Shown in pieces: positions 6,001 through 12,000 of a DNA stretch of 64,000 bases. The stretch is from contig CAZFCP010000001.1 in NCBI GenBank assembly GCA_964517775.1, positions 115,371-179,370 on the forward strand, read 5' to 3'. Position numbers: made by a program. The DNA is from an uncultured Candidatus Marinamargulisbacteria bacterium (GTDB lineage Bacteria > Margulisbacteria > Marinamargulisbacteria > SXXA01 > JAHFDB01). Position 1 is the first letter of the stretch. Each line of letters starts with the position of its first letter.

Positions 6001-9000
6001 CAACACCATTTTAAGCCAAACTGCCGAGTTATTATCCGCACCAGGAACCATCGAATTAATCTCCGTCACCCCTCAAAAAATCATCGTTAAATCGTTTGTC
6101 AGCAAAGCAGACTGGGATGCCTGGGTTCGTCATATGGACGCCCTGTCTTTCGGAAAAAACGTCACCTGGGACACCTCCAAAAACATCATTTCAGATGAAT
6201 TCAGCACCATTTTTTTAATGGGAGACACTCGTGGATGAACTGTATCCGTCATTAACAGCACTCGCTGCATCCATTATCATCGGACTTTACTGCATACTCT
6301 ACCCGCTTTACGACATTTACGAACTCAAACATGAAAAACCTCCAGTCATCGTAAAAACAGAATCTTCACCTGAAAAAAAATTATCGTTACTCAGGTCAGT
6401 ATGTACGTATACCTACAATCCGACCTTAAAAGAAGTCTGTATCGCCATTCCTCAAACAGACCCTGGCGTTTTTTTTAAAACTCTGGATGACACCTTTAAA
6501 AGAATTCAATTATCGCCAGTTCAAGCCGTCGTTGTGCCCGATAAAGGAGGTTTGCTTTATGTTCGATTTAAGTAAAAAAACAGCCCTTTTTTTAGTGATG
6601 ATGTTTATGATGATTCGACCAGGAATCAGGATAGAGGCCCAACCTGTCATACGATACGAAAACAAGTTCAATTCCGACCTTATTTCAAAACTCAAACAGG
6701 AAAACCCGTCACTTTCAAACAAAGGAACCTCCAAAATCATTCATTTAACCTATGCAGATCCCAAATGGGTTGCCGATGCGTTAAAGCAACTTTGGCCATC
6801 ACTCGTCATTGCCACAGATACAAGAACCCGATCTCTAACCCTGATTCTGGAAGATGGATTGTTTCAAAAATTAAAACCCATCATTCGTGCCTGGGACAAA
6901 CCTGGTCCTCAACACAGTATCGAAGTCAAAGTGATAGAAATAGACTCTAAAACCATCAAAAATGAAACTGGCCCCCTAGCCCGACTTTTGGATTCTACAC
7001 AGCTACTTCAGGATGGATTTTCATTTTCATACGACATTAATTCCGAAATTTCCGCCATGCTGGATTCCGGCACCGCAAAACTGCTGGCAAAACCGGTTCT
7101 CACCACCATTGATTTACAAAAAGCTGTGGTACGCGTAGGCGAAAAAGTACCGTATCTCACCCATATTATCCACGAGAAATATATCGCCGAAGAAATACAT
7201 CAGGTAGACACCGGAGTCGATTTGGAAATTCTCCCAAGAAGCGTATCCGAAAATCAGGTTTTAACCGATATCCAGGCCAGGGTTTCCTCCGTAAAAAACT
7301 GGGAAGCGCTAGGCAGTAGCCGGTATCCAATTTTATCGTCCCGCTACGTAGAAACCCATGTCGTTCTTAAAAAAGGCCAAACGTTAGCCATCGCCGGCCT
7401 TTACGACGAACAGGAAAAAGAAAGCAAACAAGGCGTTTTAGGCCTATCCGAACTTCCATTTATCGGCTTTTTGTTCACATCCAAACAACAGGAACAGAAA
7501 AAAACAGACATCGTCTTTCTCATCACCCTACTATAAAAAAAGAAGCTCTCGAATAGGGGGGGATCTTCGAGAGCTTTTTTTTTACCCAATTTATACCTGA
7601 AAACAGGTTTTATTTTCCAAACAGTTGTGGGTAGATCTACAAGAATTATAAATGAAAATTGTTGTTTGTCAATTCTACCTAAAATGAGCGTAAAGACACC
7701 TCTACATTTTGATTCAAAAATAAAAAAATCACTAAGGACAAACCATGACTAAAGACATAACAAAAATTGACCATTTGAAAACAAAAATCCATACCATTCG
7801 CGGTGTCAAAGCAATTTTGGATAGAGATTTAGCATATTTATATCAAGTAGAAACCAAAGTATTAAACCAAGCTGTGAAAAGAAATTTCGATCGATTTCCA
7901 GAAGACTTTATGTTTCAAATTAACACTTTAGAATTCGAAAATTTGAAGTCACAAATTGTGACATCAAGCTGGGGAGGAACAAGAAAACTACCTTACGCCT
8001 TTACAGAACACGGGGTAGCGATGCTGTCCTCTGTACTTCACAGTGGAATCGCCATCGAAATTAATATCCGAATTATGCGGGCATTTGTGGAACTTAGAAA
8101 ATCGATTTCAATTAATCCTGAATATGAACAGCTTAAGGAAAAAATTCAGCGGATTGAATCTCAAATGGAAACTATGGCGACTGGCAATATGGTTGATGGA
8201 ATACTCCTTGAGAAAAAACTGGCGGTTATGAATGCGGATATTCGTCGGGTTTCTGAAACGTTAGATGGATTTCAGGATGGTTATATTGTGATTAAGCGAC
8301 CAGAGGATGGGTTGGAGAAAGGCTAAGAAAATTTATGAGAAAAGAACTCCTTAATCTTTACACACAGAAATTATACGCCATTGACGGATATACGCTAAAA
8401 GCGTACATTAAAAATGAATAAATTTGAATGGGATGAAACAAAACGAAATTCAAATATCAAAAAACACAAAATTGACTTCATTTTAGCCATTCAGGTTTTT
8501 AACGATATAAACCGTATTGAATGGTCCACAGAAAATAATGGAGAGATCCGAACCATTACCATTGGTAAAATTCAGGGCGACATAATCATTATAATTTGTG
8601 TCGTATGGACAAAAAGAGGAACAAAAAAACGCATTATTTCTGCAAGGAGAGCCAGTCAAAATGAAAGAAAAACATATGAAGGATAAAACAAACTGGAACG
8701 CTCTAAAAAATATGACTGAAACAGATATAAAAACAGCCGCAAAATCAGACCCCGACGCCCCATTACTTACTAATAATCAACTTAAACAATTCAAACGTGT
8801 TAATCCGGTAGAAGATATTGATGTTCAAAAGATCAGAAGCAAACTGCATCTTTCACAAGAAAAATTTGCACTCTTTTTTGGTGTAAGCAAACGAACTATT
8901 CAGGAATGGGAGCAGCATAGAAAGCGACCCAATGCGACATCACGAAATTTTTTGAGGGTAGTTGAGTATGCTCCAGATGTTGTGCAAAAGGCATTAGAGA

Positions 9001-12000
9001 AAAAAAGTAATTAATTGGGTGAATGAAGGGCTAAATGGTGTAAAAACAGCTCGACATTATGCTATTTAAAACACTATAGAATATTGAGAATTAATATGGG
9101 TACAGCGTGGACATATCAATAAAACGTGTCCATAATTCTTATATTTTTGGACACATTTCACACAAATCACCTATCTCCTTACCCTCAGTCCTTATCCTTA
9201 TCAAAAATTGTATGGAAATTCTTTAGCTTTGAAATACAAAAAGGAGAAAGGGGAGGAGAAAGAATCAAAAATTTCTCTATGTTCAATTTTTGATGGTGGG
9301 GCAATCAGGACAGAATTACGCTCCTAATCGGCTGCTATTTTACATTAATTTGTATTCGAAAGTGTTAAAAGTGGCCTAGTATAAACTTACACTCATGTTG
9401 TTTCTTCGAATATTACGGCATAAACTTTCTGATCCGGATTCATAAATTCTACAAAAACTAACACCCCATTTTTTCCAGGAAAAAGCCAAATTACATGCTG
9501 ATTAAGCAGAGTTTTTATTTCCTGAATCCATATCTTCATTTTTTGAACAAAAGTATCAAGATCTATATTTTTTCCAGAATACGGATTCCAAGCATGCAAA
9601 AAATCTTGGGTTTCCTGAAAAACAGATTCTAAATCTACTTCTAAGAGAAAGCCTTCTGTTCTTTGCTGCAAGTGGCTTAATTTTCCATTGCTGAAACTAC
9701 AAATTTTGGGTTCAGGATAATATTTAGGATTAATTTTTCTAATACTTTCCAGTATCTTAGTAAAATTCCAGTCGGTAGCATAACTTTTTCTTTTCTCTTC
9801 GTACTCCTTTCGATGAGCTGTTAGAGAAGAAAATGCTATTAATTCAAATATTTTTCTAAATTGAAGGCATAAAAACTCAATATCCGTAAACATCGACATG
9901 GTCTTATGGACACTTGGATTCAAAAGAAAATAGTCAATTATGTAGACTCTTTTTTTAATTTCTTCCATACAATCACAGTATTTTGACAAATCTTTTTGAT
10001 TGCTCATTTTTACCCCTTAAACAACTCAAACAACCGCACATTCAAAAACAAATTCTCCCGCCCAATTTTCTTTGATGAAAGAACCCCAATTTGTTCAAGC
10101 TGATACAGATATTCCGAAGCAGTTTGCCGCTTTACAATCCCTGCATCATCCAGAAATTTAACCTTACAATAGGGCTGTTGAAATAGAACTTCAATCAACT
10201 CTTTTGAATAAATCCGAGGCAACTCATTTTTTATTTTCTCACGAACTTCTTTCATCAAAGATTGAATCCCTTGAATCTTTGATATGGTTTCTTTTGCTGA
10301 GTATTCGATACAAGCCAACATATACAAAATCCAAGGCTCAAAGTCTTGTTCAAACGTCACACTACGCAATAATTTGTAGTAGGATTCTTTATTTTTGATG
10401 ATGTAGTGGCTCATATAAAGGATCGGCAAATCCAAAAGTCCCTGTTGAACGAGATATAGAACGTTCAGTATTCGCCCTGTACGCCCATTACCATCGTAAT
10501 AAGGGTGAATGGCCTCAAATTGATAATGAATCACCGCCAGTTTAATCAATGGGTCAATATCATCTGAATGAATATAATCTTCAAGATTTTTTAATTTATT
10601 TTGAATAATTTCTCTCCCAGAGGGAGGCGTATAGATTGTATCGCCATTTATGGCATTTTTTAGCGCTGTTCCAGGCAAGCTTCTTATGCCTGCATTATTT
10701 TTTAATAACTCTGCTTGAATGGCATTGATAACATTGGTGGTTAGCAATCCTCTATCCCTAAGTAATGAATGTCCTTGCCACAGGGCACTTCGGTACTGCA
10801 TAACTTCTTTTGCTGCAGGGCTTAGCTCTTGATCTGCTAGAGAAAGAGCTTGATATAATTCATCGGTAGTAGTAATGATATTTTCTATCTCAGAGCTGTA
10901 CTGGGCTTCTTTAAGACTCAAGGTATTAATGAATATGGTTTGGTTGGGAATGGTTTGAGCAAGCCCTTTTAATTCGCCCAACGCTTTATTAGCATTAATA
11001 GCCGCTCGTAGAATGGCTTTTGACTCGATATCTTGTTTGAGGGGTAGCTCAGGGAGCTCATTATAGGGCTTTTGGGGATCGATTTTCATAGAAAAATAAT
11101 ATGTCGATGCGATCGACATGTCAAGATATCGTGTCGATTTTTATTAAAAATTTCGACATATCTAGACTGGTGGGCCCACTAGGACTTGAACCTAGGACCA
11201 ATCGGTTATGAGCCGAGTGCTCTGACCAACTGAGCTATGGGCCCTTATAAAGACCGCCGGAGAAAACCCCTCCGGCAGCAAAACAGAGAACTATAAAAAC
11301 TCTCTAAGTGAATCGATTGTATCGGGCTGGCGAAGTTTTTCGATAGCCTTGGACTCGATTTGTCGGATACGTTCGCGGGTAACGTTGTAGATCTTACCGA
11401 CTTCTTCCAGTGTTTTTGGGACACCGTCTTCAAAACCGAAGCGAAGTTTTAGTACGCGTTCTTCCCTCTCGGTGAGTGTAGATAATACCTCATTTAGGGT
11501 TTGTTTTAAAGACTCGCGGACGATGTTTTTTTCTGGGGCGTCCTGGGTTACGTCTTCCACAAAATCGCCTAGAACACCGGATTCTTCTCCTACCGGCATT
11601 TCTAATGACAATGGGACTTGTGAAATACGAACAACCTCTTTAACGCGTTCCAGAGAAACACCGGATCTGTCCGCGATTTCCTGTTCGGTTGGTTTACGTA
11701 GGGTTTCCTGCATTAACTGACGGGAAACACGGCGAAGTTTGTTCATGGTTTCCACCATGTGAACCGGAACACGGATGGTTCTGGCCTGGCTGGCAATCGC
11801 ACGGGTAATGGATTGGCGAATCCACCATGTAGCATAAGTGCTAAATTTAAATCCTTTTTGGTAGTCGAACTTTTCTACCGCTCTGATAAGCCCTAAATTA
11901 CCTTCCTGAATTAAATCAAGAAATAAAATTCCACGGCCTGTATATTTTTTTGCGATACTTACAACCAATCGCAAGTTAGCAATCGTAAGGCCATTTCGGC

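Follow-up and report, generated by a model that had tools for sequence, protein, structure and literature searches.

What kind of locus occupies the roughly 3.6 kb between a secretin operon and a tRNA(CAU) gene in the genome of an uncultured Candidatus Marinamargulisbacteria bacterium? The segment in question lies within a 64,000-nucleotide stretch of DNA (assembly GCA_964517775.1, contig CAZFCP010000001.1, positions 115,371 to 179,370 of the forward strand), which is referred to here as the window and to which all positions refer unless a relative is named. An initial annotation of this DNA had described the segment as a run of mobile or defence-associated genes at a tRNA integration hot spot, perhaps an old and degraded island. 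The evidence presented below points to a related but distinct answer: positions 7584-11167 are probably a small mosaic accessory islet of toxin–antitoxin (TA) and anti-phage genes, held at a long-lived variable locus downstream of tRNA(CAU) in a dnaG-rpoD-tRNA block, and not an integrase-driven island. It would be a routine tRNA-linked accessory locus, adding little beyond evidence that loci of this type occur in an uncultured lineage about which little is known and that they can endure where no integrase is present.

Gene Content, Composition and Boundaries of the Islet

The genes that the initial annotation had placed between the secretin operon and the tRNA were found at the same positions by open reading frame (ORF) scanning and Pfam searches, and Pfam and PADLOC matches confirmed that the segment, which adjoins the 3′ end of the tRNA, carries genes of TA and defence type. 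The features of the islet and of its edges are as follows:

7584-11167: the islet, from the terminator of the secretin operon to the 3′ end of tRNA(CAU); five genes, about 3.6 kb
6487-7536, plus strand: secretin gene (Pfam PF00263)
7536-7583: terminator hairpin, an inverted repeat of 18 nucleotides (nt), 94% complementary, with a 12-nt loop
7745-8326, plus strand: ORF6N gene (PF10543)
8414-8686, plus strand: BrnT gene (PF04365)
8661-9014, plus strand: antitoxin gene, overlapping the 3′ end of the BrnT gene by 26 nt
9015-9392: non-coding spacer of 378 nt, which divides two convergent gene groups
9393-10007, minus strand: gene for a 204-residue protein without a Pfam, NCBIfam or PADLOC match
10010-11119, minus strand: Fic gene, longest ORF (Fic_N, Fic and SoFic-like_C domains); the likely ATG at 11089 would give 10010-11089
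11168-11244, minus strand: tRNA(CAU), the right boundary of the islet (ARAGORN; Rfam tRNA, 71.9 bits)

That the islet is AT-rich, as the initial annotation had held, was borne out by measurement. The G+C fraction (GC) of positions 7590-11167 is 0.349 (34.9%) versus 0.424 (42.4%) in the remaining window, and the islet is the lowest of all 3.6-kb stretches in the 64 kb (mean 0.420, standard deviation (sd) 0.020), about 3.5 sd below the mean. At the level of individual genes, the comparison was made with 50 non-overlapping background ORFs of the window (GC 0.425 ± 0.028), among which all five islet genes take GC rank 0-1. The deficit is largest for the BrnT gene (GC 0.315) and the gene for the 204-residue protein (0.311), which lie 3.9-4.1 sd under the mean gene GC, followed by the antitoxin, ORF6N and Fic genes at 2.5, 1.9 and 1.5 sd, respectively. 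The expected deviation therefore held for GC in all five genes, but for GC at third codon positions (GC3) in only four of them, which are at or nearly at the bottom among the background ORFs, the GC3 of Fic being ordinary (0.364, rank 17 of 50). The islet is heterogeneous in composition, its strongly AT-rich components being the gene for the 204-residue protein, the BrnT pair and ORF6N, and this heterogeneity argues against a single recent arrival.

The search for signs of mobility gave a uniformly negative result. No integrase or recombinase was detected among all ORFs of at least 40 residues in the segment, and no room is left in it for one. In agreement with the initial annotation, the tRNA 3′ end was not found repeated: its last 25 nt have no second copy in the window at up to three mismatches, and the direct repeats found in the window (seed 8) are short and at chance level. 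When the DNA of the whole islet was compared with plasmids and phages, no common cassette emerged, the matches being confined to the conserved cores of Fic and ORF6N. The proposed integration at a tRNA hot spot thus found no backing, in that no integrase, att repeat or pseudogene remnant points to integrase-mediated insertion. The islet does resemble tRNA-linked genomic and defence islands in the adjoining tRNA 3′ end, in its deviant composition, in its TA and defence cargo and in a content that varies among relatives. Unlike them, it has no integrase, flanking direct repeats or mobility genes and measures only 3.6 kb, and part of its cargo, a Fic gene of the SoFic type, appears to have been kept at the locus across deep divergence.

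This last point derives from the comparison with relatives. The nearest genomes in a collection of 185,579 species show 41-46% DnaG identity; a 3-kb contig of another assembly that also carries the Fic gene is 100% identical to the window, so that it represents the same population and adds nothing. In three relatives (denoted here as L001, L007 and L008), dnaG-rpoD adjoin a near-identical tRNA(CAU), and the cargo that follows the tRNA differs from that of the window. In L007, whose DnaG and RpoD are 46% and 77% identical to those of the window, the tRNA is followed by a GIY-YIG gene, a HAD hydrolase gene, a SoFic orthologue (69% identical to the Fic of the window) and a convergent BrnT gene with a CopG-type antitoxin and, further downstream, by a Fic fragment, a NYN protein and arsenic-resistance genes. 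In L008, the tRNA block is inverted, and the tRNA and a GIY-YIG gene are followed by a 75-residue remnant of the SoFic C-terminal domain. In L001, the tRNA, a GIY-YIG gene and a 155-residue ORF precede a homologue of the 204-residue protein (38% identical), and the cargo forms an AT-rich islet, with a GC of 0.28-0.35, limited by the RNase P RNA gene. The similarity of the window to L001 and L007 ends at the CCA end of the tRNA.

The same gene order with uniform composition in all relatives, which the initial annotation had named as the observation that would speak against an accessory segment, was not found: cargo differs in L001, L007 and L008, and the accessory status therefore stands. SoFic looks like an old resident because of its tRNA linkage in L007 (at 69% identity), its remnant in L008 and its ordinary GC3. 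With three distant relatives as the basis of comparison, SoFic, and BrnT perhaps as well, would seem to have resided at the tRNA-linked locus for a long time, and the gene for the 204-residue protein, ORF6N and the particular antitoxin are lineage-specific. From the suggestion of an old and degraded island, the accessory nature and the age of part of the cargo can be retained, whereas the notion of a single island has to give way to a mosaic one.

As to the precise limits of the islet, the left edge of the low-GC segment is the terminator hairpin, at which GC falls from 0.45 to 0.33. This hairpin, which has A and T runs to its left and right, is bidirectional and ends the secretin operon. Since none of the relatives shows synteny for that operon, the left boundary was drawn from composition and the terminator only. 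On the right, the 3′ end of the tRNA points toward the islet, which begins at 11167; beyond the tRNA, on the side opposite to the islet, lie rpoD and then dnaG. Besides the five genes, the islet holds just two spacers, of 160 and 378 nt. The longer one has a GC of 0.339 and a sole ORF, of 55 residues and low complexity, and an Rfam scan of the islet revealed no non-coding RNA apart from the tRNA, with none in the 378-nt spacer.

The locus of L007 shows one more trait worth recording. Downstream of its BrnT pair, positions 12161-13524 hold a second, truncated Fic-domain ORF of 220 residues (PF02661, E 2e-7), a 234-residue ORF that is unrelated to the 204-residue protein of the window, and the gene for the NYN-domain protein, all of which are further conflict-type cargo at the same locus.

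The Fic Gene, Its Promoter and a Candidate Operator

The Fic protein of the islet is made of a Fic_N domain, a Fic domain (E 2.5e-17) and a SoFic-like_C winged helix (PF21248, E 3e-32, residues 288-363), and it matches the PADLOC model of SoFic with an E of 7.6e-120. The initial annotation had classified it as a class II Fic, a class defined by an N-terminal inhibitory helix motif, (S/T)xxxE(G/N). This assignment was confirmed: residues 75-80 form the inhibitory motif SSEIEN, on the N-terminal side of the Fic motif HPYYDGNGRTGR (residues 205-216), in which a Tyr takes the place of the consensus Phe (HxFx(D/E)GNGRxxR). SSEIEN is also the inhibitory motif of SoFic from Shewanella oneidensis (bioRxiv 10.64898/2026.07.09.737422). 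The window protein therefore shares with SoFic, a single-gene anti-phage system in PADLOC and DefenseFinder that includes EcSofic, the three domains, SSEIEN and a canonical Fic loop. In contrast to SoFic, it carries the mentioned Tyr and scores 466.1 bits against NCBIfam NF046030, under the equivalog cut-off of 550, in an alignment that begins at residue 14. The protein is consequently described here as SoFic-like rather than as a proven equivalog, and its target may differ from that of SoFic. AMPylation of EF-Tu, toxicity and phage protection are known for the S. oneidensis and E. coli proteins only (bioRxiv 10.64898/2026.07.09.737422; PMC12249575): SoFic AMPylates EF-Tu (bioRxiv 10.64898/2026.07.09.737422), and a 47-residue protein (AS1) encoded directly downstream neutralises the toxic EcSofic (PMC12249575).

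The operon is preceded by a near-consensus promoter (TTGACA-17-TATTAT, 11124-11096 on the minus strand, 11 of 12 positions matching) located 48 nt from the tRNA, and the same promoter layout is found upstream of the L007 SoFic orthologue. The -10 box ends 6 nt short of the ATG at 11089, which is the second one in frame and corresponds to M11 in the longest ORF. This position, together with the NCBIfam alignment from residue 14, indicates that M11 is probably the start, and the Fic mRNA may be leaderless at this ATG. A further feature overlaps the promoter:

11099-11161: putative SoFic operator, with four TGTCGA-type half-sites that make up two inverted repeats, covering the promoter and DNA upstream of it

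One of these repeats is a perfect palindrome, ATGTCGAT-CGC-ATCGACAT, at 11101-11119, inside the promoter spacer; the second, built from the same half-site, is formed by ATATGTCGA/TCGACATAT at 11099-11107 / 11153-11161, just upstream. In L007, the half-sites read ATATGTCCA...TGGACATAT (ATGTCCA...TGGACAT), so that both arms are altered and the symmetry is preserved. SoFic has been reported to attach as a dimer to its own promoter, no more than 100 bp away from the start codon (bioRxiv 10.64898/2026.07.09.737422), and the palindromes of the window agree with this published self-promoter binding. The palindromes and the compensatory change in L007 are consistent with SoFic autoregulation. Published work had narrowed the binding site just to 100 bp, and the TGTCGA half-sites provide a candidate operator at the level of sequence.

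The 204-Residue Protein: A Member of a Widespread Family, Coupled to Fic

The gene that follows Fic raises a question of its own, namely whether its product is a partner of Fic. A word-based search that returned five matches had made the 204-residue protein look like a rare orphan, but this view was overturned by an exhaustive profile search, which yielded 2,420 cluster representatives (clustered at 50% identity) at E ≤ 0.001 and 419 at E ≤ 1e-30. Most members are stand-alone proteins of about 200 residues, and no recognisable fused domain was found in the longer ones. None of 78 family members gave a meaningful Pfam match, the weak ones being patternless, and no HEPN family was present among their Pfam matches at E up to 10. 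A profile search found no sequence relative of the protein in the PDB, and the family is absent from PADLOC-DB v2. The near-invariant residues of the family are Y10, R20, E44, Q49, R51, E55, N93, P98, P100, H138, N141, P142 and H171.

An AlphaFold2 model derived from the 78-sequence alignment (predicted local distance difference test, pLDDT, 95.2; predicted template modelling score, pTM, 0.91) shows a long helical bundle, a beta-hairpin and a small C-terminal three-stranded sheet. In a fold comparison, around 14 of the 60 top matches were HEPN-type domains, with designed four-helix bundles scoring nearly as well, and a Foldseek search of the model against the PDB and BFVD returned nothing significant. 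The modelled fold can be called HEPN-like; the protein was not assigned to the HEPN superfamily because four-helix bundles score nearly alike, the Foldseek result is non-significant and the Rx4-6H catalytic motif is absent. Unlike HEPN toxins such as HepT of HepT/MntA, the 204-residue protein has no Rx4-6H, no MNT partner and no HEPN Pfam match, and its model adds the beta-hairpin and the C-terminal three-stranded sheet.

The genomic contexts of the homologues were informative in a different way. In 86 homologue loci, many of them short, tblastn revealed no Fic, BrnT, ORF6N or related antitoxin near the homologue. The neighbours distribute over 120 Pfam families among 147 ORFs, with at most three ORFs per family, and the ORFs upstream of the homologue in L001 and in another locus, L005, are unrelated to each other. 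Judging from these neighbourhoods, the family is solitary and has no recurrent neighbour. Its members were found in an island with integrase, Prim-Pol and AAA genes, beside PD-(D/E)XK and WYL-type genes and on plasmids, as well as in Yersinia phage vB_YpM_50 and in 28 of 5,426 complete E. coli genomes (hhalign probability 100%). In the three phage or prophage loci inspected, which are P2-like, the gene lies between those for the replication endonuclease gpA and gpQ, the portal protein. The gpA-gpQ interval of P2 is a hotspot that harbours old and tin along with many validated anti-phage systems (PMC9122126), and the homologues of vB_YpM_50 and of the E. coli P2-like prophages occupy this same interval. 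Because of these mobile and hotspot locations, a role in anti-phage defence or in conflict between elements is the best guess for the family, reached through guilt by location. No paper naming the E. coli homologue WP_021519103 was found. As a candidate single-gene anti-phage system that would be new, the family lends itself to cheap and direct testing, and it is the most useful lead to come from the locus.

Two further observations concern these homologues. In the P2-like prophage of E. coli VTB97432v (locus L132, 4514-5869), the homologue is located between a 243-residue gene and the gene for a FRG-domain protein (PF08867, E 9e-23), and this trio may be a multi-gene arrangement. The family-alignment search also retrieved three viral contigs of high GC with noisy ORF lists.

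In the window, the initial annotation had described Fic together with a partner of unknown function. A translationally coupled gene was indeed found, as Fic and its follower share one strand, only 2 nt separate the Fic stop from the following ATG, a Shine–Dalgarno sequence (AAGGGG) lies in the 3′ end of the Fic gene, and a single promoter serves both. A conserved pair, by contrast, was not, Fic being present at 0 of the 86 other loci, many of which are short. It seems unlikely, on balance, that Fic and the 204-residue protein make up a functional two-gene system, in which the latter would either control Fic toxicity in the manner of AS1 or act as a HEPN-like effector switched by AMPylation, as in MntA-HepT. 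The neutralisation of EcSofic toxicity by a small downstream gene (PMC12249575) offers a precedent for the first version, and a HEPN-like fold beside an AMP-transferase recalls MntA-HepT in the second. However, where EcSofic is followed by the 47-residue AS1, the Fic of the window is followed by a protein four times that size. In addition, the SoFic orthologue of L007 has no such downstream gene, L001 has a homologue without Fic, the family lacks a recurrent neighbour, and neither the missing Rx4-6H motif nor the non-significant Foldseek result favours an effector of HEPN type. A more elaborate proposal, for which the odds are long, is that the protein is a degenerate HEPN-like effector of an undescribed, widespread anti-phage family that in this lineage became wired into the SoFic operon and is switched by AMPylation, or de-AMPylation, by Fic. 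If true, this AMPylation switch would constitute a Fic-based counterpart of MntA-HepT and a second output of SoFic besides EF-Tu. The interpretation preferred here is that the 204-residue protein, although encoded on the Fic transcript, would most likely act on its own in defence or conflict, its gene being an independent one that came to lie in the Fic operon, and would not be an obligate partner.

BrnT, Its Antitoxin and the ORF6N Protein

On the opposite strand, the islet carries a TA pair that had been annotated initially as BrnT/BrnA. The toxin half of this designation proved correct: the 90-residue protein belongs to the BrnT ribonuclease family (PF04365, E 1.9e-22, 79.8 bits versus a cut-off of 34.5; PHROG 4399), and its gene is preceded by a promoter-like site at 8381-8409. 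The antitoxin half did not. The second protein, of 117 residues, has a C-terminal helix-turn-helix (HTH) of XRE/MqsA type, as deduced from its Pfam matches (HTH_3, E 3.7e-05; HTH_19; MqsA_antitoxin, E 1.8e-06), which cover the C-terminal part only. It also matches PHROG 2104 (E 1.9e-21) and, under their cut-offs, the MqsA and NadS families of NCBIfam, while no match to a BrnA or CopG/ribbon-helix-helix (RHH) family was found at E up to 1. Its identity as BrnA was ruled out on these grounds. The antitoxin gene has its own AAGGAG, 11 nt ahead of the ATG at 8661.

The pair resembles BrnT/BrnA of Brucella abortus in its PF04365 toxin, in having the toxin gene first and in the overlap of the two genes, and differs from it in that BrnA is an RHH protein and the islet antitoxin has an XRE/MqsA-type HTH. 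The order toxin-then-antitoxin is typical of the BrnT family, and partners with an HTH, although on record, are rare, with 2 cases among 33 BrnT-antitoxin fusions (PMC11980606). The BrnT of L007 is 39% identical to that of the window and is accompanied by a CopG/RHH-type antitoxin that is not homologous to the one found here. The association of BrnT with unrelated antitoxins (HTH in the window, CopG-type in L007) at the same locus of two relatives provides an example of antitoxin swapping.

The remaining gene encodes a stand-alone ORF6N protein of 193 residues, with a KilA-N-like DNA-binding domain and a helical C-terminal half. It matches PF10543 (E 2.9e-33), the PHROG family 4792 ('anti-repressor', E 1.6e-31) and, with an E of 1.3e-53, PDC-S05, which is a PADLOC defence candidate. 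Paper titles and abstracts contained no experimental test of PDC-S05.

Origin and Turnover of the Islet

Once the genes are considered one by one, the question of how they came together can be addressed. That the segment is what remains of a decayed prophage or satellite, integrated at the tRNA 3′ end and reduced to its accessory (moron) genes, is very unlikely. Such a remnant would account for the PHROG phage families matched by all five islet proteins, for the adjoining tRNA 3′ end and for the AT-richness, and homologues of the 204-residue protein do occur as cargo in an integrase/Prim-Pol element and in P2-like prophages. Yet, the 3.6 kb contain neither structural nor replication genes, neither an integrase nor any other mobility gene, and neither att repeats nor fragments of pseudogenes. 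SoFic is tied to the same tRNA in two other relatives, both without phage genes, the compositions of the genes are unequal, and no cassette-level DNA similarity to phage or plasmid records was found. The idea that the segment is native, consisting of small regulatory or stress genes whose low GC would reflect weak selection on short, poorly expressed genes, finds some comfort in the ordinary GC3 of Fic and in the presence of SoFic and BrnT at an L007 locus that is not markedly AT-rich, but can be given hardly any credence against a content that is not the same in any of the examined relatives, individual genes whose own relatives are spread over plasmids, phages and unrelated phyla, and BrnT and 204-residue protein genes lying 3.9-4.1 sd under the mean gene GC.

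The observations are best integrated by assuming a mosaic accessory islet composed of three or four independently promoted modules. By analogy with characterised homologues, from which the biochemical activities of all the islet proteins are drawn, Fic would be kept autoinhibited by its SSEIEN helix and would repress its own promoter through the binding of the winged-helix domain to the TGTCGA palindromes. Once activated, it would AMPylate EF-Tu and bring translation to a stop, in a form of abortive infection. The 204-residue protein would be produced from the Fic transcript, the BrnT ribonuclease toxin would be neutralised by the HTH antitoxin encoded by the overlapping gene, and the stand-alone ORF6N DNA-binding protein (PDC-S05) would represent a fourth module. 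The content of the locus would turn over by gene replacement and by insertion between conserved flanks. Both the defence role of the islet and this mode of turnover are inferred.

Several considerations weigh against this interpretation. Low GC by itself is a weak sign of foreign origin, and the matching region of L007 is not markedly AT-rich. The coupling of the 204-residue protein gene to Fic, with its 2-nt gap and the Shine–Dalgarno sequence in the Fic 3′ end, fits a functional pair as well as it fits a chance insertion, and the NCBIfam score of Fic falls short of the equivalog cut-off. The relatives are only three, all of them distant (41-46% DnaG identity), and in none of them is the secretin operon, the left flank of the islet, found nearby. 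Finally, the presence of SoFic and BrnT in both the window and L007 could be due to repeated acquisition rather than to inheritance.

The Boundary tRNA and Minor Observations

The tRNA that limits the islet at 11168-11244 deserves a comment on its identity. ARAGORN names both CAU tRNAs of the window (11168-11244 and 49739-49815) Met, from the anticodon. The best E. coli match of the first one is a CAU tRNA annotated as tRNA-Ile (77.9% over 77 nt, full length), and that of the second is tRNA-Met. The boundary tRNA is thus probably a tRNA-Ile2 (lysidine type) and not a tRNA-Met. Its antisense strand matches the Rfam family Plastid-ycf2 5′UTR; in plastid genomes, this element adjoins trnI-CAU.

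Near the left edge, a perfect sigma-70-like promoter (TTGACA-16-TATAAT, 12 of 12 positions) was noticed at 7672-7645 on the minus strand. It faces the hairpin at 7536-7583 and could yield a small RNA, some 100 nt long, with no annotated feature on the opposite strand. This site is regarded as a lead only, because the promoter scan gave fewer promoter-like sites in the real than in the shuffled sequence. A weak Rfam match to His_leader covers 7537-7668 on the minus strand (E 0.2, non-significant); this and a sub-threshold match of the islet to one microRNA family were dismissed as non-significant.

Just after the tRNA, L001 (4199-4270) and L007 (8735-8800) share a conserved GC-rich element of around 70 nt, GCCTACGCCAAGGCTTCGGCTGGCA...AGGCTGTCCGCC, which precedes the small GIY-YIG gene; in the window, neither the element nor the GIY-YIG gene stands at the post-tRNA position. 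In L001 (6537-6898) and in L008 (16197-16551), a few kb separate the RNase P RNA gene from tRNA(CAU), and no RNase P RNA was found in the 64-kb window. Lastly, the lowest-GC background ORF of the window (57003-58103, plus strand, GC 0.324) encodes an Acyl_transf_3 acyltransferase (PF01757, E 1.5e-26), and horizontal acquisition may account for this gene, too.

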